A stretch of DNA of 64,000 nt from a virus: IMG/VR virus record IMGVR_UViG_3300045971_000409, positions 1 to 64,000 of that record; one strand, 5' to 3'. The position numbers and the translations under genes are program-made. Positions within the stretch are counted from its first letter, which is position 1. Every line of letters begins with the position of its first letter. Below the pieces are notes generated by a model. It saw only the letters and a list, made by a program, of their open reading frames with translations, made no database searches and was not told where the DNA came from. Shown here piece by piece: positions 9,970 through 53,513 of the stretch.

Positions 9970-10601
9970 GGACCATACAGCTACATGGAGAAGTGGGGGA
10001 TTTGTACGGCGCAGAGTGGAATTTGGACGTAGCTACCCCTGCGGAAGCCATTATCGCTATCGAGGCCAATCGCCCTGGATTCCTCCAGTATCTACAGGAC
10101 ACGGAGAACAAGGGAGTAGAGTACACCATTAAATTGGGGTCTTACGAGATAGAACCTGAGCGTATAAAGGGTCCTTTTTCCAAGGCGGAGATATTCCATA
10201 TCATACCTCAGATGAGTGGAGCATCCTCAAAAGCCGGGGCAACCGCCAAGATAGTCGTAGGGGCCATCTTAGTTATCGTGGCTATGATCGCCTCCTCAGG
10301 CCAAGCTGGATGGGGCATGCCCGTAATAGCGGGCTCAACATGGGCCCCCACGGCCGGAGCCACTCTCATGTTCGGGGCTACTCTCATGCTGGCGGGGGTA
10401 TCCAGCCTGCTCACCAAAACACCTCAAACTGAAAATAAATCGTCAGAGGCTGAACGATTGAAGGGGCACTATTTTTCTGGACCCGTGAACACCATAGCCG
10501 AGGGCGGGCCTGTCCCCCTGGGCTATGGCAGATTACTCGTCGGCGCGGTGGTTGTCAGCTCAGGTATCGAGGTGCGTACTGATGTCTCAATCAGAGTCTA
10601 A
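9966..10601 (+). CDS. Tail assembly protein, lambda gpI-like
   Basis: AAGGAG RBS before ATG 9966; 'YFSGPVNTIAEGGPVPLGYGRLLVG'. Confidence 0.92.
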   Translation: MRTIQLHGEVGDLYGAEWNLDVATPAEAIIAIEANRPGFLQYLQDTENKGVEYTIKLGSYEIEPERIKGPFSKAEIFHIIPQMSGASSKAGATAKIVVGAILVIVAMIASSGQAGWGMPVIAGSTWAPTAGATLMFGATLMLAGVSSLLTKTPQTENKSSEAERLKGHYFSGPVNTIAEGGPVPLGYGRLLVGAVVVSSGIEVRTDVSIRV

Positions 10602-13600
10602 TTTACCCGTAGTATACTCCGGGGCTGGTAAGGGTGGCGGTGGCGGACAAAGTAGCACCCCCATAGAAATACCCGAAAATTTACGCTCCACGGGTAAAAT
10701 AAAACTTATAGATGTAATTTGCGAGGGAGAGATTGAGGGTCTGGTAAACTCTGACAGGTCCATCTATATCAATGATGCCCCTCTCCGCAACAACAAGATG
10801 GATTACGCCACCTGGCAGACCTACATTCGTAACAACCCGCAGAATATGGGGTTGGATATGAACTACACAGGGTTAGAGTGGCAATTCTTCACGGGCACTC
10901 TCACTCAAGAGGCCATAGACCCCAAAAAACTGGCCATTTCTGATGTTACCACGGAATACGCTCATTCTACTGAGGTAATGTCAGGGTACACCGAGCAAGA
11001 TGTTTTGTCCCTGGTAGACCCCTGGGGTACGGCCAAATTGTCAGGGGCCATAACCACGGCTATGAGATATGCTAATGCTGTGGCCCTATCCATTACTAAC
11101 CCCAACGTGGACCAGATAGAGCTACGTCTGAGTGTACCCTCCTTGTGGGAGACCAACCCCTTCCTGAACTATATTGGCCCCACCAAGGTAGTGTATGGAG
11201 TAGAGATAAAAAGTAGTATCACGGGGGATACCTGGAATCCCTTGTACAGTAGTAACCCCCCCATGGTTATGGGTAGACGGATAGATAATACTCATTTCGT
11301 GTTCGATGAGTACACTCTGGCCCTTACCCTCACCTTCACCGCCGAAGCCTATATGAAGCCCATATACGACACGGAGGGTATTCAGGTAGATGTGTCCATG
11401 TGGCAGGGGGCCGCAGGTTTTATTCAGGTAACCTATAAACTCTTGGCGGATACTGAGTGGCTGAATGGACCTTTGGTGAAACTTACCTCGTGGTCAGGGC
11501 AGTATACTGCGGTACTTGGCGACCTTATTTTGGGGAAATACGAAGTAAAAATAGCGTACGTGCAGGATACGATATACCAGAGCGACGCCCAGACCCTCAA
11601 CATAGAGTCTCTAACTGGTTACGGGTCAACCCCCAACTCTTACATAGATTACTTCGAGGGACTTACGTACAGTAAATACGAAAGGGCAGTCAAAGTAGTG
11701 CTGCCTTTTAGGGATGGAATACCCAGGCAAGATCACATGCCCTGGAGTCTTCGGATTTACCGTATAACCCCTGACAACCTGAGTACAAAAAGAAGTAATA
11801 AGCTGAATCTGGACTCGTACACCGAGCACACTCTGGTCCGTTTGCGTTACCCAAATACGGCCTACTGCGCCATGACGGCCCACGCTGAACAATTCAGCTC
11901 CGTGCCCTCCAGGGCTTACGACCTAAAACTATTAAAGATAAAAATACCCACCAACTATGAGCCCACAGCCCACACCTACAATAGGGCCTCCAATGGAACC
12001 CTGGTTTTTGATGGTAATGGGTTACCGGTAGAGCAGATATGGGATGGGCAGTTCTACGTTGCCTGGTCTGATAATCCGGCCTGGTGCTTTTACGATCTAC
12101 TGTCCCATCGGCGTTATGGTCTAGGCAGTTTCCTGGATACGTCCTACATCAACAAGTGGTCCCTGTACACCATAGGTAAGTACTGTGATGGCAGGGTCCC
12201 CAGCGGTAAACTTGAAAATGCGGTGGCCTACGCCCCTGCTACCTCTTACCCTGCGGGTAGTGTGGCCGTGTACAATAATAAGTGGTATCGAAATACCAGT
12301 AACCCCGCAGTAACCCTCGTGGGGGTACTGCCCACCAATACGGCCAGTTGGACTGAGATAGCGGTAAATACCCCTATCTATGAGCCTAGATTTACCCTCA
12401 ATGCGTATATAGCCTCCTCGGTAGAAGCCTACAAATTACTACAGGATATGTCCTCAGTATTTCGGGGCATGATTTACTGGGCCGCCAACTCGGTTATAGC
12501 CGTCCAGGACTCCCCTCAGCCACCCGTGGCCGTGTTCTCCAACGCCAATGTTATAGGAGGCATGTTCACCTACGTGGGGTCGGCGCGAAGAGCCCGTAGG
12601 ACCGTAGCCCTGGTCACCTGGAATGACCCCCAGAATCTCTACCGTAAGGCTATTGAATATGTGGAGAATAGAGAGGCCATGCTTCGGTATGGCTACAACT
12701 CCACGGAAATAATTGCTTTTGGTTGTACCTCCCGTGGACAAGCGCACCGGCTAGGTCGTTGGCTGCTTTATTCCGAGTCCAACGAGACCGAGGTTGTTAC
12801 CTTTCAGGTAGGGGCGGATTCTACCCTGATACAGCCCAATAACATCATCAAAGTTCAAGATGAAAGCCGAAACCTCAACCGTATGGCGGGACGTATCATT
12901 CGGGCTACCGCCACCAGTATTATCACCGACAGTAAATTAACCACGCTGGCCCTGCCTGCTACTCTGGACATTATACTGTCGGATGGCAGTCTATTCTCTA
13001 CGCCCATAGCGTCATTCAGTCACACGAACATAGTGCCTCCCATAGATAAAGGGGCTTGGGTATCGGGCACCTACTACAACGCGGGCGAGATGGCCACCTA
13101 CGCTACGATACAGTATGTGTGCATATCTCCCATACCCATAGTACCGGCCAGTAACCCCACGGTAGATACTGCCAACTGGATGACCTATACCGCTTACGTA
13201 GCCCAGGCGGGTAGCCCGTGTACCACCCTGAACTGGTCAGGCCCAATACCAAGTACCCCGGTACCCGAGTCTATGTGGCTGGTAACAGCCGCTGGAGTCT
13301 CTAATTGGCTCTACCGGATAGTGGGCATAAAGGAGATAGACACCCTCTCCTACGAGATATCGGCGGTAGCCCATTATCCCCAAAAATTCGACTTGATCGA
13401 GAACAATCTGGCCCTATCCGTGGACAGCGGAACTATTAACGCGGACTTGACAACAGTTAGTCCCCCACGGAATATCACCTTCACCGAGGAGGTATACTCA
13501 CCCACCCCTGGCACCTCAGCTATTCGCCTGGTAATAAGCTGGGAGGCCCCTGAGAACAAGTACGTCTATCAGTACAAAGGGCAGGTTCAGCACCCGGATG

Positions 13601-16600
13601 GGTCCTTCCAGATGTTCAATACCCCTGATGCCAAGCTCACCGTAGTCGTGGCATCTTCGGGTACCTACACGATAAACGTCAGAACTGTTACCTTTAGCAA
13701 TATGGTATCAGCTCCCGCCACAGCATCATACTTGCTGGTACTGCACTCAAAGGTACCCGTGCCCAATGTGACCGGGCTTGACCTATACCCTGGCAATAAC
13801 TACCGGTACTTCAATACGAAAGACTGCCACCTCATCTGGCACACCCCCCAGGCGTACTCTGATACCCCCCTGGCGGATGCCCAGCCTTTATCCCAGGTAC
13901 CCCTGGAGATGTGGTTCAAGCAGTATGTTATCCGCATCTACAATATGGATAACTCGCTTCGCAGGACGGACTACTCAAAGACCCCGGAGTACTTCTACAC
14001 TCACGAGAAAAACTATGCGGACGGGGGAGAAGCCTTCATCCTTGCCCGCGAGTTTATTGTGGGGGTTGTGGCCGAGGATACCGCGGGAAACTGGTCTGAG
14101 GTAGAAGCGAGAATAATCGTATCCAATCCAGCCCCGGCGGCCTTACCGGCCCCCACCCTCAATGGCTTTATCGGGTCTTTCATGGCGGCCTGGAATCCAT
14201 CTCCTGAGGTGGATGTGGTCGGGTATGTAGTGCATGCAGTGTTGGGCTCGGACTTTACTCCGGGGCCTACCAACCTGAAAAACACCGGGCCAGAAACGGT
14301 ATTTACCTACACCAAGGCTGCGGCCGGCACTTGGTACGTAAAAATTGCCGCTTACGATGTGTTTGACAAGACCGGATTAAATTACTCCCCGGCGGCCACC
14401 ATAGATGTGGCTGGAACCATCGCGGATATAATGACGGCCCTTGAGGGCAGCATCACCCGGTCTCAATTATTGCCTGCATTGCGAACCAGTATTGACACCA
14501 TAGACGACCCCTCCACGGGACTTACCGTACGGCTAGGGGCGGCCTTAACCCAAATAGATAGTATCAATGGCCAACTCGCGGGATTAACCGTCAGTACCTA
14601 CACGGCATCCCTTACCTATGCCATTGGTGTATTGGTACGCGGAACGGACGGCCTCACCTATAAGGCAAAAATAGCGGTACCCATAAATACCGCACCACCC
14701 AACCTCACCTACTGGGAGCCGGTAGTGGGTGTCGTAAGTCTTGCCCAGGCCATTACGGATGAGACAACGGCCCGACAACTAGCAGACAGTAATGAAATAT
14801 CCAGGGTTAATGCTCTACTGGCCACCCTGCAAAATACCACGGTACCGGGCCTCATAGTTACGGCAACAAATGGCTCCATAAAAGATGCCTACGTCGCGGC
14901 AGATGGTGCCCTAGCTACGGACTATAACTTCAAGATAGCTAGTATAACCCAGCCCGTCACAGGTAGTATAGCTTCCGCAATTACAGCCTCAGAGACAGTG
15001 ACCACGGGGCTTATCAACACCACCGCCAATGCGGTTACCACTTTGCAATCTCGGGTGGATGGGATTGAATCCTTATTTGGAGCCTATAACTCCTGGAACT
15101 TTGACACCACGGTAGAGGGTTTTATCGCCGGGGGTACGGGTGGCTCTCTGGCCTGGGTACGGGATTCTGGTAATGGGTCCTTAAACTACACCACTGTAGC
15201 GGGGGGAGTATCTCCTACGATCAACATTACAGGTCTGTCCGTCCCCAGTAAAAACAATGTTGTTCGGATGAAAATAAAACGAATATCGGGTACTGCTACA
15301 GACTGGGTGGGGTCTATGATGTACTCCACGGCGGCCAATCCAACCCCCAGTTTAAGTCGTTACAAGGCGGCCCCTTCCTTGGTGGGCGGCCTACCTCCAG
15401 GCAAGGATATGGTCTTTGAGTGGGATATGTCCGCTCTCACCGTGGGGGGTACCGATTGGCTTACCCAGCCCACCATCACTGGGCTATCCATTATCCTGGC
15501 CCCCAATAATACGGTAGGGCAGTTCTATATTGACTGGATTGTCATAGGGTCCAAAGCACCCCCCGCAAGTATGGCCTACCTGGAAGATGTACGTTACACT
15601 TTAGCCCAGGTGGATATAGCCGAAGCAGGGTTGCGCACTACCTTGGCGGCGCGAGTACTCAATACTGAGCAGCTATTCGACCCCATTGTGACCTGGAACT
15701 TTTTGTCTTCTTTCGAGGGGTGGAATCGTGTCGCAACCGATGTGACTCTTTCCGTCACCAGCACAGGGGGTAAAACCACCCTCAATATGGCAACCTTTAC
15801 CACCAATACAGTACAAATCTACGTTCCTACCTCGGGGGTAGATGGGACCAAGTACACACTGGTAAGAGCCAAAATAAAAAATACAGGGTCGATAGATATA
15901 ACGCGCTTCCAGTGCTATTACGCTAATGCCGTCCATGCCACATACACGGTCAGTTACTACAAGAATCTGGTCCTCACCTTAAAACCAGGGGAAGAATCTA
16001 TCGTTGAGTGGGATATGACGGCCCTAACTGCTGGGGGTGCTGACTGGACCAACCCGGCTAACCCCATCAATGGCATAGCTCTGGGATTGGGGGGTATTGG
16101 AGCCACTCTGGAAATCGACTGGATAACGATAGGACGTAAAGCCCCGGCGGCCAGTACCGCGGCCATTGAAACGGAACAATCAGTTCGGGCTCAGACGGTA
16201 GGAAAAGACTATTCGGCAACAACGGCATTTCCCACCAAGAGTATCTGTCTTTACAATGGGGTCCTTTACCGCAACACGGTCGTACCTGCAAGAACTCTAC
16301 TGGGTGAGCCACCCCCTGATGCGGCAAAATGGACCCCAGTAACCAGTAATGCCTACGCCCAGTATACCTTGAAACTAGAGGTAGATGCTGGGGGTACTAA
16401 GTATGTGAGTGGTTTCGGACTTTCTAATGATGGAGAAACTTCAGACTTCATCGTAGTGGCGGACAAGTTCGCCATAATGGCTCCGATAGCTGATGCCTTA
16501 ATTACGGACCCGTTAAAAAAGAAACTCATACCCTTTGCGGTGGCAAGGGTAAACAATACCTGGACAGTGGGCATTAATGGGCAATTAGTAGTGGATGGCT

Positions 16601-19600
16601 CCATCAATGCTCGGGCTATTGATGTCACCAGTCTGCACGTAGGGCCGGGCGGAATCAGTATAGACGAAAATGCCCTCATAACCTTCGGCCAGGTTATGAA
16701 TGCAGTACCTACACTGGACCCCGCCATAAAGGACATGCTCCAGCAGGAAATAGAGCCCTACCTGCCCTCCCCGGTATACTCCAGGGCCTCCACCGCGTAC
16801 TATGAGGGGTCCGCCGAAATAGCCCTGGTAGACACTCCCCGTATTGTAAAAACTACCCATGATGGGGCCAGGGTGACGGGAGAAAATGCCATACTCATGG
16901 AACCCGCAGCTACCAACTGGCTGGCGGCTAACCTACCCACCCACCTGGCCCTTACAGCCTGTACTTTAAACGGTGGAGCCACCTTAGGGTCTATAACCCC
17001 CGGCCAGTCTGACCCCTTCGGGGGTATGAATGCTGTGCGCTACTATGTCACTTCGGATGGCATTACCTCTCGTCGTAAATTCTGGCTAGGTGGGGTTGTA
17101 GTACCTGCTGGTGTCAATGGCTGTCAGCAGGTATGGGTACGTAATCGGTCAATCACCGTCATAACAGTTACCGCTAATATCGGGCTCTCTTCCGTCAGTA
17201 TTCCCGCCAGTTCGGGATGGATACTGGTGCAGCACAACAACGTACTGGGGGATGGTGTAGCTCAGATGCACCTGGATTTCGCTACTACCCTGGTCGGTGA
17301 AAGTATAGATGTAGATTTGTTCCGTCCCATGCAAGACATAGTGAACACCATATCTTACACCTCATGGACCAACTCTACCCGAGCTTTAGATACTTTGAGT
17401 GTCTCCGCGGTCAACATGGGCACCAAGTGGTCCATAGAATGTTGGGCCAAAAGTAATACCATAGGTACTATAAATAAGTGGGTATTCTCCTCCTGGACTA
17501 AATTTGGGGTGGGTATAGGTGGTGGATCTGATACAACCAAAGATGGCTACCCCCTCTTCGCGTACTATGATGGGACCAATACCCGACAGAATGTTTACGC
17601 CTCCGCCCCCCTGGCGGCCCCTAAAGGATGGAATCACTGGGCAACCACTTTTGATGGGACCACCGTAAAAGTTTATGTGAATGGCGTAGTGGTTATAGTC
17701 GTCACCACCCCCCTTCCTCAGGCATGGAATAGTAACGCTATACAGATCGGCTGCGGTATATACTGGGCGGGCTATATCTCCAAATTCCGTACCCTTAATT
17801 TTGTCATGACCCCAGCCCAAGTAACCAATGCGTACCAGTTCGCGTTTGTGCGCGGCGATTTCTCTGGGGCCTCCCTTTATGAGCTGGATTTCAACAACAC
17901 CTCAATGTGGAAGCAAACCAGTACTGGGAAGCTCTACAGCTACAATGGGGTAGCGTGGGTTTTGGCCTCCACGGTGGGAGCCCCTGCGGGTACCCTGGTG
18001 GGCAATAAAGAAGCGACAGCTTTAGCCTTATCGGTAACCCTATCGGAAACCGCTATAAGTGATCTTACCAGCGATGATATTTTATCCCCCGTGGAAAAAC
18101 AGGCTCTTTTGACTGAGTGGTACAATGTCTATTATGAGTGGGCAAATGTCTTAGAGCCGAATGCGGCCGCTAAACTGGGCACGGGGCATATTGCATACAC
18201 CAATTACCTGGGTAAGATTGCTACCCTGAACGCCTTCATCAATTCAGCCCCGGTCAATATATTAAATAAAACAGTAAGTACCGCACTGTCGGTAACAACT
18301 CTTGATGGGATAGTACCTCCCAACGTAACAGGCACCGTCTTACGTAACTTTCTCTGGGGTTTTTATCAGACCCGCGGAGCCCTCATCACCGCCCTCACGG
18401 ATAAAGCGGGCACCACAGCTTTATGGTCCGGCATCCCTACGGGTACGGGTAAGGCCGCGGATTATGCTACGGTTGGGGCTGATGCTACGAATCTACAGGT
18501 AGGTCTTTCCAGCAACATGATTGTTGATGCTGACTTTCGTAACTGGGCCAACCACCCGCTGACTCTATGGAACAGTATCACAGGACTTAGTGCTGAGGCT
18601 GGTATCAATTTTGGATCCATTTGGAGACTACCAGCCCCAAGTAATACACCATACCTCAAGCACCCGAATAACATTCCGCCAGAAACTGCGTACTCGGCCT
18701 TTTACACGGAGTATTACACGGTAGCCTCTGACTCTTGGTACGAATTGTATGCCTACACTGGTGCTCGTAGGTGCAAGGTTCAAATCACGGTGGCCGAGTA
18801 TAATGGGGCGGGTGCTTTTAATCTGTCCACCACGTTATCCATAATAAATGATGGTGAGGCTGCGGGGGGCGTTACCCTGAATGTCTACAAGAAAACGGGT
18901 GGCTTCTTCAAGACTCAGGGCACCACGGCGAGTATATACATCACTATTGCCAAGTTCTGCACTAAGACCGGTCAAGCCGATAGTTATCTTTTTCTCGGCC
19001 CGATGTATCTCGGCAAAGCACTATCGGCCCAGGTCACTTCTGGGGTATTCTCCGATTGGAGTCCTGGCCCTGCGGGGTACGCGGGTCAACTTAATGCCAC
19101 CAATGGCGCCCCCACGGGTACCTATGTCGGGGGTACCGAAGCAAGTGCCTTATCAACATCAGCAGCAACATCAGCAGCAAGTATTGGGCAGATGGCAGAT
19201 GATACTATCCTCTCACCTATAGAAAAACAGGCATTGCTCAAGGAGTACTATGACGTCTACTATGAATGGGTTAATGTTTTAGCACCCAATGCTGGGACTA
19301 AAATAGGAACTGGGGCGACAGCCTATGTAGACTATTCCACTAAAATGTCGCAACTTATTACGTTTATAAACTCTGCGGCAGTTAATATAGGCAGTGTAGG
19401 CACAAGTACCTATTTGTCCACAACAACCCTAGCCGGAGTAACTCCGGTAACAGGTAATAGTTTCCGGTCATTTTTCTTTGATTTCTACCAAAAAAGGGCT
19501 GCCCTCTATACCGCCCTTTCGGACAAGGCGGGTACCATAGCTGATTGGGATAAACTCAACGGCACTATGCCTGCAAATATAGTGACAGGCTCCGGTACCG

Positions 19601-20175
19601 AGATCGCAAGTACCTGGATATACACTGGTACCTTGTATGCAGAAAAAGTGAGTTCTCGTCTGGGTACCTACGATGAATTATATGTAGGTGGGCATGTTGT
19701 CTCTGACCCCAAACAAGCTACAGGCCCCGCTACAGACACTAGGGCTTATCAGAATTATAATGCAGCGGGAGTTATGATATCATCCCCGCGGACCCATGTA
19801 GACCTTGGAGGGCAGGCTATAGATCACACCATAATGGCTGTCCTGGCCATAGAAATTATAGGGCAGTCAACCTTCACTTGGACTGGATTTTTGACGGGGT
19901 ACACTTCGGTAGCGGGAGCTAAAGTAATAATCGAGTTGTTTAGAGTGGATACCTACGGTGGAGAAGCCTTAGTAAAAACATTCTCCACCTTAGATTTAAC
20001 CTCAGGAACTCACATGATACCCGTACAGTACACTGATAGGGCCACTGGTGGTTATTTGTATCGTATAAAAGTTAAGGGTACAGTTGGTAATATGGATGTA
20101 ACTGGTATTCCTACGCTAGGCTGTCGGGCTAATACCTGTAGTATTGTAGTTATGACTACCAAAGGGGGGGCTTAA
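10582..20175 (+). CDS. Tail tip / host-specificity protein, lambda gpJ-like (~3200 aa, multidomain)
   Basis: 'GAGKGGGG', 'CEGEIEGL', 'WSDNPAWCFYDLL', 'FGCTSRGQAHRLGRWLLYSE'; FN3-like, DUF1983-like and LamG-like segments. Confidence 0.93.
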   Translation: MSQSESNLPVVYSGAGKGGGGGQSSTPIEIPENLRSTGKIKLIDVICEGEIEGLVNSDRSIYINDAPLRNNKMDYATWQTYIRNNPQNMGLDMNYTGLEWQFFTGTLTQEAIDPKKLAISDVTTEYAHSTEVMSGYTEQDVLSLVDPWGTAKLSGAITTAMRYANAVALSITNPNVDQIELRLSVPSLWETNPFLNYIGPTKVVYGVEIKSSITGDTWNPLYSSNPPMVMGRRIDNTHFVFDEYTLALTLTFTAEAYMKPIYDTEGIQVDVSMWQGAAGFIQVTYKLLADTEWLNGPLVKLTSWSGQYTAVLGDLILGKYEVKIAYVQDTIYQSDAQTLNIESLTGYGSTPNSYIDYFEGLTYSKYERAVKVVLPFRDGIPRQDHMPWSLRIYRITPDNLSTKRSNKLNLDSYTEHTLVRLRYPNTAYCAMTAHAEQFSSVPSRAYDLKLLKIKIPTNYEPTAHTYNRASNGTLVFDGNGLPVEQIWDGQFYVAWSDNPAWCFYDLLSHRRYGLGSFLDTSYINKWSLYTIGKYCDGRVPSGKLENAVAYAPATSYPAGSVAVYNNKWYRNTSNPAVTLVGVLPTNTASWTEIAVNTPIYEPRFTLNAYIASSVEAYKLLQDMSSVFRGMIYWAANSVIAVQDSPQPPVAVFSNANVIGGMFTYVGSARRARRTVALVTWNDPQNLYRKAIEYVENREAMLRYGYNSTEIIAFGCTSRGQAHRLGRWLLYSESNETEVVTFQVGADSTLIQPNNIIKVQDESRNLNRMAGRIIRATATSIITDSKLTTLALPATLDIILSDGSLFSTPIASFSHTNIVPPIDKGAWVSGTYYNAGEMATYATIQYVCISPIPIVPASNPTVDTANWMTYTAYVAQAGSPCTTLNWSGPIPSTPVPESMWLVTAAGVSNWLYRIVGIKEIDTLSYEISAVAHYPQKFDLIENNLALSVDSGTINADLTTVSPPRNITFTEEVYSPTPGTSAIRLVISWEAPENKYVYQYKGQVQHPDGSFQMFNTPDAKLTVVVASSGTYTINVRTVTFSNMVSAPATASYLLVLHSKVPVPNVTGLDLYPGNNYRYFNTKDCHLIWHTPQAYSDTPLADAQPLSQVPLEMWFKQYVIRIYNMDNSLRRTDYSKTPEYFYTHEKNYADGGEAFILAREFIVGVVAEDTAGNWSEVEARIIVSNPAPAALPAPTLNGFIGSFMAAWNPSPEVDVVGYVVHAVLGSDFTPGPTNLKNTGPETVFTYTKAAAGTWYVKIAAYDVFDKTGLNYSPAATIDVAGTIADIMTALEGSITRSQLLPALRTSIDTIDDPSTGLTVRLGAALTQIDSINGQLAGLTVSTYTASLTYAIGVLVRGTDGLTYKAKIAVPINTAPPNLTYWEPVVGVVSLAQAITDETTARQLADSNEISRVNALLATLQNTTVPGLIVTATNGSIKDAYVAADGALATDYNFKIASITQPVTGSIASAITASETVTTGLINTTANAVTTLQSRVDGIESLFGAYNSWNFDTTVEGFIAGGTGGSLAWVRDSGNGSLNYTTVAGGVSPTINITGLSVPSKNNVVRMKIKRISGTATDWVGSMMYSTAANPTPSLSRYKAAPSLVGGLPPGKDMVFEWDMSALTVGGTDWLTQPTITGLSIILAPNNTVGQFYIDWIVIGSKAPPASMAYLEDVRYTLAQVDIAEAGLRTTLAARVLNTEQLFDPIVTWNFLSSFEGWNRVATDVTLSVTSTGGKTTLNMATFTTNTVQIYVPTSGVDGTKYTLVRAKIKNTGSIDITRFQCYYANAVHATYTVSYYKNLVLTLKPGEESIVEWDMTALTAGGADWTNPANPINGIALGLGGIGATLEIDWITIGRKAPAASTAAIETEQSVRAQTVGKDYSATTAFPTKSICLYNGVLYRNTVVPARTLLGEPPPDAAKWTPVTSNAYAQYTLKLEVDAGGTKYVSGFGLSNDGETSDFIVVADKFAIMAPIADALITDPLKKKLIPFAVARVNNTWTVGINGQLVVDGSINARAIDVTSLHVGPGGISIDENALITFGQVMNAVPTLDPAIKDMLQQEIEPYLPSPVYSRASTAYYEGSAEIALVDTPRIVKTTHDGARVTGENAILMEPAATNWLAANLPTHLALTACTLNGGATLGSITPGQSDPFGGMNAVRYYVTSDGITSRRKFWLGGVVVPAGVNGCQQVWVRNRSITVITVTANIGLSSVSIPASSGWILVQHNNVLGDGVAQMHLDFATTLVGESIDVDLFRPMQDIVNTISYTSWTNSTRALDTLSVSAVNMGTKWSIECWAKSNTIGTINKWVFSSWTKFGVGIGGGSDTTKDGYPLFAYYDGTNTRQNVYASAPLAAPKGWNHWATTFDGTTVKVYVNGVVVIVVTTPLPQAWNSNAIQIGCGIYWAGYISKFRTLNFVMTPAQVTNAYQFAFVRGDFSGASLYELDFNNTSMWKQTSTGKLYSYNGVAWVLASTVGAPAGTLVGNKEATALALSVTLSETAISDLTSDDILSPVEKQALLTEWYNVYYEWANVLEPNAAAKLGTGHIAYTNYLGKIATLNAFINSAPVNILNKTVSTALSVTTLDGIVPPNVTGTVLRNFLWGFYQTRGALITALTDKAGTTALWSGIPTGTGKAADYATVGADATNLQVGLSSNMIVDADFRNWANHPLTLWNSITGLSAEAGINFGSIWRLPAPSNTPYLKHPNNIPPETAYSAFYTEYYTVASDSWYELYAYTGARRCKVQITVAEYNGAGAFNLSTTLSIINDGEAAGGVTLNVYKKTGGFFKTQGTTASIYITIAKFCTKTGQADSYLFLGPMYLGKALSAQVTSGVFSDWSPGPAGYAGQLNATNGAPTGTYVGGTEASALSTSAATSAASIGQMADDTILSPIEKQALLKEYYDVYYEWVNVLAPNAGTKIGTGATAYVDYSTKMSQLITFINSAAVNIGSVGTSTYLSTTTLAGVTPVTGNSFRSFFFDFYQKRAALYTALSDKAGTIADWDKLNGTMPANIVTGSGTEIASTWIYTGTLYAEKVSSRLGTYDELYVGGHVVSDPKQATGPATDTRAYQNYNAAGVMISSPRTHVDLGGQAIDHTIMAVLAIEIIGQSTFTWTGFLTGYTSVAGAKVIIELFRVDTYGGEALVKTFSTLDLTSGTHMIPVQYTDRATGGYLYRIKVKGTVGNMDVTGIPTLGCRANTCSIVVMTTKGGA

Positions 20176-48133: not shown

Positions 48134-50266
48134 ATGCAACCCAAGAAGCTGTACAGTACTATTACCGAAGGCGATCTTTTCGAGACCATGAATCTCGGAG
48201 AGGCCAAAGAGTTATTGGGGGGCAAGGCTTCCGGCCTGTTCGTCATGACTCAACTCGGTATCCCTGTACCCCCCGCAATGACTATCCCAACCGTAGAATG
48301 TATCAAGTTCTTATCTGAGGCAAAGGAAGAGTCAGTACAGACCAGACTCAATTTTCTGGTAGATGAAGTCCTCACCGCGATAAAGACCGATATCGTTCCG
48401 CAGTTCGGATACACCCCGTTGTTCTCCGTTCGTTCCGGGGCTCGGGTGTCAATGCCAGGTATGATGGATACCATTCTCAACGTGGGACTGACCCCGGATA
48501 CCTTGGAAGAGTGGTTTCCGCGTATCGGGGAGTGGGCCTCCTGGGATAGCTACCGTCGCCTCATTCAGATGATGGCTTCTGTGGCCCTTGAAGTTCCGAT
48601 GTCTCAGTTTGAAGAGGCCCTCACGGACGCGAAAAAAGAAGAGAATGTGACTGAGGATACCGCCCTTTCAGTATCCGCCCTTCGCAAACTGGTTATCCGT
48701 TACAAGAAACTGGTCAAGGCCCATACCGGTAACGATTTCCCCACCACCCTTCGGGGGCAGTTATTGCTGGCCATCAAGTCGGTATTTCAATCGTGGGACA
48801 ACCCCCGCGCCCATACGTACCGCGCATTGAACAATATCCCCTACGATTGGGGCACCGCGGTAACAGTACAAGCCATGGTCTTCGGAAATCGTAACGAGCA
48901 GTCTTGCTCTGGTGTTCTCTTCACCCGAGACCCATCCACCGGGGATGATAATCTGGTAGGGGAGTTCCTACCTAACGCCCAGGGTGAGGACGTTGTTGCG
49001 GGAATCAGAACCCCTCTGCCCTTTGACGAACTGGAAAAATGGAACCCCAAGGTATGTTCTGACTTGAAGGCCGTCGCTGTTCGACTGGAAGATCACTACC
49101 GGGACATGCAAGACATAGAGTTCACGGTAGAGAATGGAAAGTTATATATCCTCCAGACCCGTAATGCCAAGCGATCACCAGAAGCAGCTCTCAGGGTAGC
49201 GGTAGACATGTACCACGATGAGCTGATTACTCTGTCTGATGTATCTCGAAGGCTCACCCCGGAATTGCTCTTGGGGTCCGACCACGTCAGTATCGACCCG
49301 GCTTATACGGGAAAACCTGCGGGGGTGGGCATCCCTGGGGGTGGTACCATCGTCAGTGGTGTCGCGGTATATACCTCTGAGGAAGCTATCGCCTGCAAAG
49401 AGCCCTGCATCCTGGTCTCCAAGGAAACTACCCCCGATGATATTGGGGGGATGCACGCCGCAGTGGGTATTCTCACCGCAACTGGGGGCTTAACTTCTCA
49501 CGCGGCCGTGGTGGCTCGGGGTATGGGTAAAACCTGCGTCGTCGGTTGTGGGGACCTGGGTAAAATCGGCTTTGTGTGGAAACTGGGAGAGACCCTGCTC
49601 CCCAAGAATGAATGGCTAACCATCAACGGTCTCACGGGGGAAGTATGGAAGGGGAAGGTACCACTGGTGACCAAGGGCATCAGTCCTGCGGCCCAGCAGA
49701 TAATAAGTATTCTGACCAAGGGTTATTCTCCGTTACTACTGGATGGGACCTTCGACTCACGCTTACGACTACCTTCGGTATGTGTGACCCCCGCCATAAC
49801 GAGTACCAACCTGAGACACGCGGCCCTACAGCATGATACAGTAGTTATCAATGGTACCGCCACAGTGAAACAACTGCATGTCGAAGACGATAAAGTACTC
49901 TCTGAATTGTTTAGTATTGATATCGCGGCCAGGGCTGAATATCAGGCTATAGGGGCAAAATTGAAGCAACTGCACACTTTAACTGCCCCAGACGTGGCAA
50001 TTTATGTTACAGTACCCCCCGACTCAGGCATTAATGTCAAGGATATGCCCAAGTTTAAAACGGTGCCTTCCGCCAATACGATAACCGATATCCTGAACTC
50101 GTCGGGATTGGTTGAATTACCCGCGGACACCTGTAAGACTTTATTCGAGGACCAGACGGGATTGCAATTGTTCCTAGATATGGCTGAAATGGCTGGCCGT
50201 AAGTTTAATATCCTACCCCCGGCTCAAACGTACACCGAGTTTATCCACCGCGTTTTGGGAGAGTAA
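48134..50266 (+). CDS. PPDK-like dikinase (ATP-grasp + phospho-His swivel domain; no pyruvate-binding barrel)
   Basis: 'LLGGKA', 'SVRSGARVSMPGMMDTILN', 'QGEDVVAGIRTP', 'QDIEFTVE...LQTR', 'GGLTSHAAVVARG'; unrelated ~200-aa C-terminus. Confidence 0.88.
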   Translation: MQPKKLYSTITEGDLFETMNLGEAKELLGGKASGLFVMTQLGIPVPPAMTIPTVECIKFLSEAKEESVQTRLNFLVDEVLTAIKTDIVPQFGYTPLFSVRSGARVSMPGMMDTILNVGLTPDTLEEWFPRIGEWASWDSYRRLIQMMASVALEVPMSQFEEALTDAKKEENVTEDTALSVSALRKLVIRYKKLVKAHTGNDFPTTLRGQLLLAIKSVFQSWDNPRAHTYRALNNIPYDWGTAVTVQAMVFGNRNEQSCSGVLFTRDPSTGDDNLVGEFLPNAQGEDVVAGIRTPLPFDELEKWNPKVCSDLKAVAVRLEDHYRDMQDIEFTVENGKLYILQTRNAKRSPEAALRVAVDMYHDELITLSDVSRRLTPELLLGSDHVSIDPAYTGKPAGVGIPGGGTIVSGVAVYTSEEAIACKEPCILVSKETTPDDIGGMHAAVGILTATGGLTSHAAVVARGMGKTCVVGCGDLGKIGFVWKLGETLLPKNEWLTINGLTGEVWKGKVPLVTKGISPAAQQIISILTKGYSPLLLDGTFDSRLRLPSVCVTPAITSTNLRHAALQHDTVVINGTATVKQLHVEDDKVLSELFSIDIAARAEYQAIGAKLKQLHTLTAPDVAIYVTVPPDSGINVKDMPKFKTVPSANTITDILNSSGLVELPADTCKTLFEDQTGLQLFLDMAEMAGRKFNILPPAQTYTEFIHRVLGE

Positions 50267-50267
50267 T

Positions 50268-50582
50268 ATGGCATTGATATTGGGATTAAAAAAGGGATGT
50301 TCCATGTACATAGGTGACACACGGGTCACCCTACACACGATTATAGGCCCCGAGGCGTTCCGCATCCAGGTATTCCAGAACAAGAAGAAACCCCACTACC
50401 TGCCCATAACCGGGGAAGAGAGTACAGAAATACTCCCTTCGGTATTTGTGTCTGCGGGCAACGGGGATTTAGAGACCGCACGGGTAGTAGTTGATGCCCC
50501 CCGCAGCATCACCATCCTTCGGGAAGGCCCGTACAAAAGGCATATCAATGGACAGACGTCAAAACTACCGCTTCACGAATAG
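50268..50582 (+). CDS. CsrA/RsmA-like RNA-binding protein with a tandem-duplicated fold
   Basis: N-terminal 'MALILGLKKGCSMYIGD' and C-terminal 'ARVVVDAPRSITILRE' match CsrA '[16 protein letters not shown]' and '[16 protein letters not shown]'. Confidence 0.75.
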   Translation: MALILGLKKGCSMYIGDTRVTLHTIIGPEAFRIQVFQNKKKPHYLPITGEESTEILPSVFVSAGNGDLETARVVVDAPRSITILREGPYKRHINGQTSKLPLHE

Positions 50583-51015
50583 TGCTTTACGACAAGCCGA
50601 AGAGTTATTCGGGGTCCTCAGTTTAGAGGACTTGCAGCACAAAATGGAGTTCTCAGCCCGAGTAACCCACGCCCACGGCAACCGACGCTTTCACAACTAC
50701 GTCTTCAATTTAGTAGGGGATGATTTAGTGACAGGAATCTACAGGTATATCGCGGGTGTGCATAAAAAGCAGGAAGGATGCCCTGTATGTGGGGGCTCCA
50801 AAAAATTGATTGTTTATGATGTGTGCGACTGTGTCTACAACCCACCACAAGGAGAATGTAAACTATGCAAGGGAATGAAGGAAGTAAAAACGGAACATAC
50901 CTGCACCTATTGCGGGTCGGATTCAAAGCCTTCAAGGATGGACTGCGCGAGGCCAAGAGAAGCTACTACGCGGGACAAGTTGAGAGCGTTCCAGCAGAGT
51001 TACAACCGGCGGTAA
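50548..51015 (+). CDS. Hypothetical protein with a DnaJ-like CxxCxG Zn finger
   Basis: CPVCGG, CKLCKG, CTYCG. Confidence 0.6.
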   Translation: MDRRQNYRFTNSALRQAEELFGVLSLEDLQHKMEFSARVTHAHGNRRFHNYVFNLVGDDLVTGIYRYIAGVHKKQEGCPVCGGSKKLIVYDVCDCVYNPPQGECKLCKGMKEVKTEHTCTYCGSDSKPSRMDCARPREATTRDKLRAFQQSYNRR

Positions 51016-51527
51016 GCAACGCGGACCTTAAGGCTATCCAGCGCAAGGCTCTGCTACACACCCTGGTCAAAGGTACTATGGATTTTCAGTTGGGTTCCAT
51101 CAAAGGTACGATATACGGGGGCCCTTATCGTAGCAAGCCTTCTGATATTATTCACGGGGTCAACATGGCCAAGGAAATCAAGGCTCACGCCACTATCTAT
51201 GTGCCTACCGTGGATTTTAGTATCCCCGACTCGAATACCTTTCTGCTTGGCCTCATTCGTGGGGTGTTGGTTCTCAGGGAGCACGGGGAGATTTACGTGG
51301 GCTGTATGGGTGGTATCGGGCGCACCGGACTCTATCTCGGGGGCCTTGCCAAGATTATGTACTTGGCGGGAGAACTGGACGTAACCCCGGACGGACAACT
51401 CGCCCCCTATGTGAAGTACGTACGGGATAATTATTATGGCCACGCCATAGAAACTATTGAACAACTGGATTTCCTGGCCCGGTTGGATGTGAGTGGTATC
51501 ACCAAAGAATTACACTCCATAGCCTAG
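50865..51527 (+). CDS. Cys-based (PTP/dual-specificity) phosphatase (true start may be 51078)
   Basis: CX5R loop 'YVGCMGGIGRTG', 'VDFSIP', 'AIETIEQ'. Confidence 0.85.
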   Translation: MQGNEGSKNGTYLHLLRVGFKAFKDGLREAKRSYYAGQVESVPAELQPAVSNADLKAIQRKALLHTLVKGTMDFQLGSIKGTIYGGPYRSKPSDIIHGVNMAKEIKAHATIYVPTVDFSIPDSNTFLLGLIRGVLVLREHGEIYVGCMGGIGRTGLYLGGLAKIMYLAGELDVTPDGQLAPYVKYVRDNYYGHAIETIEQLDFLARLDVSGITKELHSIA

Positions 51528-52659: not shown

Positions 52660-52679
52660 CCCCTTACATGGAGGTAACA

Positions 52680-53513
52680 ATGGGAAAGCCCACAGTAAAA
52701 TGTAATCTAAAATTGGAGTTCAAGGTGCAAGACGAAGACCGGGATGATGTGATAGTAACTCCCTTATCGGCCACGGGAGCACCCCTTGAGTCGTATGTAA
52801 CTACCGGTAAAATGGCCCCTGCCAGTCAGCGATCTAACGTAGTGCCCTTCACCCCCAAAGGGGCATCGACTAAATCGACACAGCCAAAGTGCCACCATTC
52901 GCATCCGGGGTTACCCATCCTTTGTTCTGATGGGATAACTCGTTTGGTGTATGGGGGCTCGTGCCTTGACCCTGTAATCAAAGACATGGATATATTCATT
53001 GGCTTAGATGGCGGGATGCAACACACAAAGAGACGTTATCCGTGGGAACCGGGCCTGGAGTATCTCTTCCCTATCCCTGACATGGGCGTACCTCCCGACC
53101 TGAGCTTGTTCAAGTCCCTGATTCAATATCTGTCTGAGCAGATTATGCTGGACAAAAAGATATTTATTGGGTGTATCGGTGGGCATGGCCGAACAGGATT
53201 AGTTCTATCGGTTCTTGTGCAATCAATTGCACAGGAAGCTGATGCGGTAACTTATGTGCGGGAGCATTATTGTAAAAAGGTAGTCGAGTCCTCCGTGCAA
53301 GTTGAGTGGCTAAACAAGAACTTTGGGATAACCAAAGTATCAGCGTCTAAGACAGGCCACACCGCAGCATCCCTATCCGCAACCGTCGGCTATAAGTCCT
53401 CGCTAGAGAGCTACAGTTCGTCGGCCTATCTGCCCAGCAACAATTCACCCAAGAAAGAAGTCCATCCCGTGTCTAGCAAGGGGTGTATATGGACGGGTAA
53501 TACACTGAAATAA
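52680..53513 (+). CDS. Cys-based (PTP/dual-specificity) phosphatase
   Basis: 'IPDMGVP', CX5R 'FIGCIGGHGRTG', 'VVESSVQ'; GGAGGT RBS before ATG 52680. Confidence 0.88.
   Translation: MGKPTVKCNLKLEFKVQDEDRDDVIVTPLSATGAPLESYVTTGKMAPASQRSNVVPFTPKGASTKSTQPKCHHSHPGLPILCSDGITRLVYGGSCLDPVIKDMDIFIGLDGGMQHTKRRYPWEPGLEYLFPIPDMGVPPDLSLFKSLIQYLSEQIMLDKKIFIGCIGGHGRTGLVLSVLVQSIAQEADAVTYVREHYCKKVVESSVQVEWLNKNFGITKVSASKTGHTAASLSATVGYKSSLESYSSSAYLPSNNSPKKEVHPVSSKGCIWTGNTLK
53218..53232 (+). repeat. Dispersed motif, copy 11 (in a phosphatase gene)
   Basis: tgTGCAATCAATTGCACa. Confidence 0.9.

Follow-up and report, generated by a model that had tools for sequence, protein, structure and literature searches.

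CsrA is the textbook example of an obligate interlocked homodimer, and the presence of two RNA sites is considered important for the bridging of two motifs and for capture by sponge RNAs with several sites. A 104-amino-acid (aa) protein encoded on a viral contig raises the question of whether such an intertwined dimer can be rebuilt within one chain, and what would then become of the two sites. The gene lies in a 64-kb window (positions 1 to 64,000) taken out of the 77,348-bp IMG/VR viral contig IMGVR_UViG_3300045971_000409, which has an estimated completeness of 62%; all coordinates refer to this window.

50268..50582, + strand, CsrA-like gene (P0001) encoding 104 aa in a single chain, stop codon included (open reading frame (ORF) and translation).

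The original prediction, made from the sequence alone, was that this ORF encodes two CsrA-like units with one intact RNA site. Retranslation reproduced its ORF and its 104-aa translation exactly. The best explanation of the results described here is a single-chain pseudo-dimer of the CsrA fold with a single RNA-type face, a reading that we regard as probable.

The ORF at 50268-50582 is genuine and conserved as a gene. When 1.84 billion cluster representatives were searched exhaustively with HMMER, 191 relatives were recovered at E <= 1e-3, nearly all of which are 85-118 aa in length and aligned over their full length. The start codon lies one base past the stop of a preceding PPDK-like gene, with the sequence GGGAGAG upstream of the ATG at 50257-50263, and a Megablast search of the region against phage records gave zero matches.

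As a whole, the family is clearly homologous to CsrA in sequence comparisons at the profile level. The Pfam CsrA model (PF02599), which the original prediction had proposed as a check, gave a divided answer: the window protein itself is sub-threshold, whereas 117 of the 136 aligned family members match the model at E<0.01 (best 2.5e-10), and some relatives exceed the Pfam cut-off (P0061 with 37.6 bits and P0090 with 28.1). Searching PDB sequences with the family profile recovered CsrA/RsmA/RsmE chains with E values of 8e-6 to 4e-4. These matches are collinear with one CsrA, family positions 2-29 corresponding to CsrA 1-29 and positions 68-104 to CsrA 26-63, which raises the alternative of one domain carrying an insertion.

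In order to compare the two halves of the protein with CsrA, the Escherichia coli csrA gene was translated from NC_000913 and used as the reference; this translation confirmed the CsrA sequence given in the original prediction. BLASTP aligned residues 54-91 with CsrA 17-50 (E 1e-4) and residues 3-41 with CsrA 2-38 (E 0.007), so that CsrA positions 17-38 are covered twice. Alignment of half-profiles with hhalign matched residues 2-40 to CsrA 1-39 for the N half (P 9e-5) and residues 51-102 to CsrA 10-61, gapless, for the C half (P 2.7e-7); these probabilities are conservative because the CsrA profile was narrow, consisting of sequences >= 88% identical to E. coli CsrA. When the Pfam CsrA model matches longer or fused relatives, it does so with profile positions 9-43 or 12-49, within the C half. 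The ungapped 45-residue alignment originally put forward, which sets H43 against L2 (offset 41), contains 11 identities in 45 positions, and the same offset was obtained by hhalign and by structural alignment, so that R85 is equivalent to R44 of CsrA and A77-P78 to A36-P37. In a shuffle test of the single sequence, the C half was significant at P < 5e-4 (0/2000 shuffles). The N half appears CsrA-like as well, convincingly so only with family profiles (hhalign, the PDB profile search and PHROG, where residues 1-23 only of the window protein match PHROG 8397, 'CsrA-like regulator').

AlphaFold2 (AF2) was run on the 136-sequence alignment of the family and predicted a fold of four plus five strands and one helix, with a predicted local distance difference test score (pLDDT) of 93.7 and a predicted template modelling score (pTM) of 0.81. 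The strands comprise residues 2-8, 12-15, 18-27, 30-36, 43-48, 53-56, 59-63, 70-76 and 83-85, and the helix residues 86-98. The chain divides into the following parts.

50268..50375, + strand, repeat 1 (residues 1-36), β1-β4, without β5 and helix (AF2, hhalign, BLASTP, PHROG 8397).
50271..50291, + strand, β1 of repeat 1 (residues 2-8), the N-terminal half of the predicted RNA site.
50376..50393, + strand, hairpin linker (residues 37-42) from β4 of repeat 1 to β1′ of repeat 2.
50394..50561, + strand, repeat 2 (residues 43-98), β1′-β5′ and the C-terminal helix, complete and protomer-like (AF2, superpositions, hhalign).
50496..50522, + strand, A77-P78 loop and β5′ to R85 (residues 77-85), the C-terminal half of the predicted RNA site.

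The linker is variable and gap-rich across the family alignment. In the predicted model, repeat 2 has the full order of the CsrA protomer fold (β1-β2-β3-β4-β5-helix) and repeat 1 only β1-β4. Structural comparison by VIA-align placed CsrA chains on repeat 2 as follows.

Model residues 40-96: 1vpz_A, Z 5.1, root-mean-square deviation (rmsd) 1.6 Å, 57/57.
Model residues 40-96: 5z38_H, Z 4.7, rmsd 2.0 Å, 56/56.
Model residues 40-96: 7yr6_B, Z 3.6, rmsd 2.4 Å, 55/55.
Model residues 43-104: 5dmb_D, Z 4.3, rmsd 2.2 Å, 62 aligned.

On its own, a CsrA chain is extended rather than globular, and its close fit indicates that repeat 2 is modelled in the shape of a protomer inside an interlocked dimer. A Foldseek search of the model against PDB chains gave no match at E<0.001, as expected because a lone CsrA chain is not globular. 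Eleven viral-protein models in BFVD have the same whole-chain fold at E<1e-3, one of which is named 'Carbon storage regulator'. The top rows of the whole-model VIA-align comparison, class II fusion proteins and CcsBA/CcmF periplasmic domains (Z 6-9), were set aside as generic β-sandwich matches.

Coevolution was calculated as mutual information with average product correction from 187 sequences (effective number of sequences, Neff, 176). The pair ranked first was 12-86 and the pair ranked tenth 14-86, both of which connect β2 in the first repeat to the last part of β5′ in the second. Pairs 34-44, 32-44 and 32-46 join β4 of the first repeat to β1′ of the second and are consistent with an antiparallel β4/β1′ hairpin, and the hairpins within the repeats (β2-β3, β3-β4, β2′-β3′ and β3′-β4′) were also recovered. 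The inter-chain pairings in the CsrA dimer are β5 to β2 and β1 to β4. The coevolving pairs are those expected between the chains of that dimer, in which β1 and β5 are intertwined into two five-stranded sheets (PMC7366521), and they point to the same interlocked arrangement here. BLASTP, hhalign, the Pfam matches of longer relatives and the superpositions argue for two CsrA-like units in one chain, and the two-unit architecture is supported with good confidence.

Conservation is highest at the retained composite site, to which repeat 1 contributes β1, and repeat 2 the AP loop, β5′ and the beginning of the helix. Among the 136 members, L3 is conserved in 100%, R85 and A77 in 99% and P78 in 96%; V59, G64 and M1 each reach 93%, I83 86% and L5 76%, and position 8 is K/R in 55%. 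The equivalences to CsrA are L3 to L2, L5 to L4 and K8 to R7 in repeat 1, and A77/P78 to A36/P37, I81 to V40, I83 to V42 and R85 to R44 in repeat 2. R85 is located at the β5′/helix junction of the AF2 model; R44 of CsrA is located at the β5/helix junction and is essential to recognise the first G of GGA (PMC7366521). A second RNA face cannot form because repeat 1 has no β5, and β1′ contains no basic residues. The AP motif, the R44 equivalent and the one intact site named in the original prediction, where β1 of the first repeat is combined with β5 of the second, coincide with the conservation peak. This also explains why sequence searches detect only the two ends of the protein, which are the parts constrained by the predicted binding site. 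That the protein binds RNA has, judged from these residues, somewhat better than an even chance.

The likeliest origin of the protein would be that two tandem copies arose by duplication and were fused, and that the first copy then lost β5 and the helix, as a result of which β4 would turn directly into β1′ as a hairpin. One chain would in this way rebuild nine of the ten strands of the interlocked CsrA dimer sandwich, with one five-stranded and one four-stranded sheet as the outcome. The AF2 model suggests that the protein is likely monomeric, and such a self-sufficient, single-site monomer would bind one exposed GGA-type RNA motif; with the second site missing, two-motif bridging of the canonical CsrA type would be impossible. 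The protein would work within a phage gene module, probably with a partner encoded by an overlapping downstream gene, and phage transcripts or Shine-Dalgarno-like motifs would be more plausible targets than the host Csr sponge system. A role set by that system is unlikely as the general case because the family is present in Rhizobium and Rhodobacter phages, and the alphaproteobacterium S. meliloti has no chromosomal csrA (PMC7366521). The further idea that a single-chain form escapes CsrB/RsmZ sponges or FliW is unsupported.

The genes that accompany the CsrA-like gene in the window are listed below.

48134..50266, + strand, PPDK-like phosphotransferase gene, 710 aa (Pfam; PHROG 18609 'kinase').
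50548..51015, + strand, partner gene, 155 aa, 35-nt overlap with the CsrA-like gene.
51078-51527, first of two Cys-X5-Arg phosphatase-like genes (weak Pfam PTP/DSP matches).
52668-53513, second Cys-X5-Arg phosphatase-like gene (weak Pfam PTP/DSP matches).

Pfam assigned only a PPDK_N ATP-grasp domain and a PEP-utilizers swivel domain to the PPDK-like protein; no phosphoenolpyruvate (PEP)/pyruvate-binding domain was found by Pfam, and the last ~200 aa are without assignment. The published reading of the PPDK-like gene as an auxiliary gene of carbon metabolism (PMC12038007) looks doubtful, and its product may be a His-swivel phosphotransferase with another substrate. Using the PPDK-like neighbour as the query, related loci were collected from 80 viral contigs, and in 46 of these 80 loci a family member lies directly downstream of the PPDK-like gene on the same strand. 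The other 34 are without a full family member (L018 ends in a fragment), and several that were inspected, in which the downstream region has no module of the phage type, resemble cellular contigs with a PPDK gene. The same PPDK-like/CsrA-like order is present in phages RcZahn, RHph_TM16, RHph_Y1_11, DLP5 and J26, and the hosts of phages carrying the family include Vibrio, Stenotrophomonas, Rhizobium and Rhodobacter. In RcZahn, RHph_TM16 and RHph_Y1_11 a terminase gene, two small genes and the PPDK-like gene precede the CsrA-like gene, which is followed by one small gene, a first phosphatase-like gene, a gene of ~350 aa and a second phosphatase-like gene; in RcZahn a DNA polymerase gene lies further downstream.

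The two phosphatase-like genes of the window flank a 346-aa PHROG 20946 protein, and the first of them likely starts at ATG 51078, not at 50865. Their PHROG, 17568, is labelled 'thymidylate synthase', as in DLP5, and looks mislabelled. In DLP5 (L087, 6445-7571), the family member gp082 has a ~20-residue insertion in repeat 1, and a zinc-ribbon and winged-helix protein, gp083, is encoded just upstream; a domain of the zinc-ribbon/winged-helix type is fused N-terminally to the family member in P0059 (238 aa). The large ORFs of the window are all on the + strand; among their products are a giant protein similar to tail fibre J, a DnaB-like helicase, a UvsX-like recombinase, a DNA polymerase and a portal protein. 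At 10525-20175 a single ORF of 3216 aa matches tail fibre J/host-specificity families (PHROG 31, E 2e-194) and is unusually long for a siphophage-type tail tip protein.

The partner gene, on which the original prediction was silent although it is coupled to the CsrA-like gene and sometimes fused to it, encodes a conserved N-domain (~70 aa), in which the motif G-N-R-R-F/Y is invariant, and, at the C-terminus, a zinc finger of the DnaJ-like CxxCxGxG type. Of 51 loci, 41 have a homologue of the N-domain directly 3′ of the family member, and in P0027, P0028 and L050 the N-domain and the CsrA-like protein are fused in one ORF. Searches of the partner against Pfam, NCBIfam and PDB sequences gave no match, and its homologues were all named 'hypothetical'. 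Homologues occur as 'hypothetical protein' in genomes of Sinorhizobium, Brucella and Nitratireductor, possibly in prophages, and DLP5 gp081, annotated as 'transcriptional repressor', is also a partner homologue. The AF2 model of the partner (pLDDT 86.9) has two helices and then a sheet of three to four strands, the element order of RelE/ParE. VIA-align matched it modestly (Z 4-6.7) and almost exclusively to RelE, ParE, YafQ, HigB, MqsR, YoeB, BrnT, the colicin D RNase and CdiA toxin domains, and RelE/ParE-type toxins lead the Foldseek list with weak values (E 0.5-5). A RelE/ParE-like fold of the partner is a lead suggested by these models. Complex prediction for the CsrA-like protein and the partner N-domain gave 0.29 against a mark of 0.32, which is no answer and was used neither way. 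In a more speculative extension, which we consider improbable, the CsrA module would be the RNA-targeting half of a two-part effector and would bring the RelE/ParE-fold partner to a GGA/Shine-Dalgarno-like motif. Were this so, the pair would cleave mRNA or block translation in a targeted way, serving host takeover or the timing of phage expression; the CsrA fold would then have a new use, and phage RNA effectors a new class.

One more distant branch of the family, from Vibrio phages, departs from this pattern. ORF99 of Vibrio phage vB_VneS_J26 was published as 'sRNA-binding carbon storage regulator CsrA' and treated as an ordinary CsrA (PMC12038007), and its two-unit architecture was not remarked on in that paper (PMC12038007). 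The 160-aa protein (L086, 6539-7021) matches the family profile over residues 1-97 (E 3e-7) and, like the window protein, is encoded directly after a PPDK-like gene. Unlike the window protein, it has a fused C-terminal domain, has no AP motif and carries Thr at the position of R85; the fused domain is without the G-N-R-R motif. From these substitutions, the canonical RNA site is probably non-functional in the Vibrio-phage branch. The joint loss of AP/R85 and G-N-R-R fits functional coupling of the two proteins but, as a single case, proves nothing.

Several observations weigh against a single-chain CsrA with one RNA site. The window protein scores only 19.6 bits against Pfam CsrA (cut-off 27), over residues 67-90 only, and its scores against the NCBIfam CsrA models (NF002469, TIGR00202) fall far short, at 16.8 with a cut-off of 73 and 12.6 with a cut-off of 70.1. 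In the single-sequence shuffle test the N half was marginal (P ~0.03, 58/2000). The two halves have no detectable similarity to one another (no BLASTP alignment; hhalign probability 0.4%), so that the duplication is inferred via CsrA and is not directly visible. The placement of repeat 1 rests on the compactness of the model and on coevolution, and coevolution and AF2, which share sequence data, are not fully independent. At the putative site, the position of CsrA R6 is occupied by the hydrophobic L7, and the J26 branch, lacking the AP motif and the Arg, indicates that the canonical site is not universal in the family. A scan of the window for GGA triplets in hairpin loops gave 157 compared with 113-169 in shuffled sequences, no enrichment; none lay at the gene starts of the module, and the window yielded no candidate target.

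Among other explanations, the CsrA fold could serve as a protein-binding subunit, antitoxin-like or regulatory for the RelE/ParE-fold partner, without binding RNA. The order of a small gene overlapping a downstream RelE/ParE-fold gene is like that of a type II toxin-antitoxin pair; in the model, the β2′ edge left open by the missing β5 could take a strand of the partner; and the Vibrio-phage branch has kept the fold and a fused C-terminal domain without R85 and AP. However, the most conserved residues of the family, L3 and R85, are residues that CsrA needs for RNA binding (PMC7366521), the natural fusions are more in keeping with an effector of two domains than with a labile antitoxin, the partner's RelE-like assignment is itself no more than a modest fold match, and ~10 of the 51 loci have a family member but no partner. 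We consider a purely protein-binding role to be unlikely.

Self-association is also unlikely. The chain might pair with a second copy, for example via an exposed edge strand, and so restore two RNA sites; the AF2 model has one four-stranded sheet with the β2′ edge free, and heterodimer studies by Mercante et al. in 2009 reportedly found that CsrA often regulates by two-site bridging. The compact and confident monomer model would be unexpected if a partner chain were needed for folding.

A single CsrA domain split by a ~40-residue β-meander, without any duplication, is quite unlikely. Here β1-β3 at the N-terminus and β4-β5-helix at the C-terminus would belong to one ancestral chain, and an unrelated insertion at ~30-67 would replace the partner protomer. 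This would account for the collinearity of the strongest matches with one CsrA (2-29 with 1-29; 68-104 with 26-63), for the restriction of the window protein's Pfam and PHROG matches to residues 67-90 and 1-23, and for the lack of self-similarity between the halves. Against it, residues 40-96 accommodate an entire CsrA chain without interruption, with β1′-β3′ placed relative to β4′-β5′ as in one protomer; hhalign carries the C half back to CsrA 10 and the N half on to 39; the Pfam matches of relatives (profile positions 9-49) lie inside the C half; and the collinearity is explained equally well by stronger conservation of the elements of the retained site. That the CsrA resemblance arose by chance, or that the ORF is not a gene, has a negligible probability: a single-sequence phmmer search against the PDB found no CsrA and the window protein is under the Pfam cut-off, but this reading is effectively refuted by the 191 homologous representatives of like length, the CsrA matches at profile level and the synteny kept in isolated phages and 46 viral contigs.

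The single-chain pseudo-dimer can be compared with several known systems. RsmN/RsmF of Pseudomonas aeruginosa retains the two-site homodimer, with the helix moved inside the chain. Its structures (4kji, 4krw, 4k59) fit residues 1-89 of the model (Z 4.5, rmsd 2.0 Å), with ~50 residues aligned at 26% identity across both halves. RsmN/RsmF is a precedent for a rewired CsrA fold, and in the window protein the rewiring would be by fusion of two units and loss of one site. YqeH's C-terminal domain, described by Andreeva and Murzin (PMC2954204), contains two repeats in one chain that form a CsrA-like β-sandwich, and YqeH (3ec1, 3h2y) is therefore like the window protein in being a single-chain, two-repeat sandwich. 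The repeats of YqeH, however, are compact, lie side by side, are segment-swapped relative to CsrA, have no CsrA sequence similarity and are part of a large GTPase, whereas the window protein keeps CsrA sequence motifs and, as predicted, the interlocked CsrA wiring. Foldseek matched 3h2y and 3ec1 to the model in weak rows (E 0.15-0.2), and the coevolution between β2 in the first repeat and β5′ in the second favours interlocked wiring over a YqeH-like side-by-side arrangement.

CsrA/RsmA proteins borne by phages and plasmids are known and have been described as closely resembling the bacterial protein (Sobrero and Valverde 2020, PMC7366521; Campa et al. 2021, PMC8450108). Like the window family, the canonical phage-borne proteins belong to the CsrA family and have been proposed as manipulators of gene expression; they tend to be present where the host has a CsrA of its own (PMC7366521, PMC8450108). 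In contrast, the window family has a divergent tandem form, is tied to the PPDK-like/phosphatase module and is also present in phages whose host group may lack csrA. Proteins labelled 'CsrA' in Vibrio, Stenotrophomonas, Rhizobium and Rhodobacter phages are not ordinary CsrA, and the coupling to the partner together with the PPDK-like/two-phosphatase module points to an unstudied function in many phages of ~80-100 kb. A literature search, the coverage of which was incomplete, found no description of a natural single-chain, tandem or pseudo-dimeric single-site CsrA. The single-chain form would provide a clean evolutionary case of an intertwined dimer becoming a monomer by duplication, fusion and trimming, and a natural one-site protein makes the function of a lone CsrA site testable.

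In canonical CsrA, chains with an average length of 65-75 aa pair into a homodimer that has two identical RNA sites (PMC7366521). Repeat 2 of the window protein shares with CsrA/RsmA/RsmE (PF02599) the strand order β1-β5 plus helix, the AP loop and the Arg at the β5/helix junction, and the protein as a whole shares the hydrophobic β1 (L2/L4) and, as the model and coevolution suggest, the interlocked two-sheet sandwich. It differs from CsrA in being one 104-aa chain of two unequal units with nine strands, one helix and one site, and in scoring under the Pfam and NCBIfam cut-offs. The window protein is homologous to CsrA even though it lies below those cut-offs and does not have the two-site homodimer architecture, and it probably functions in the manner of a single CsrA site.

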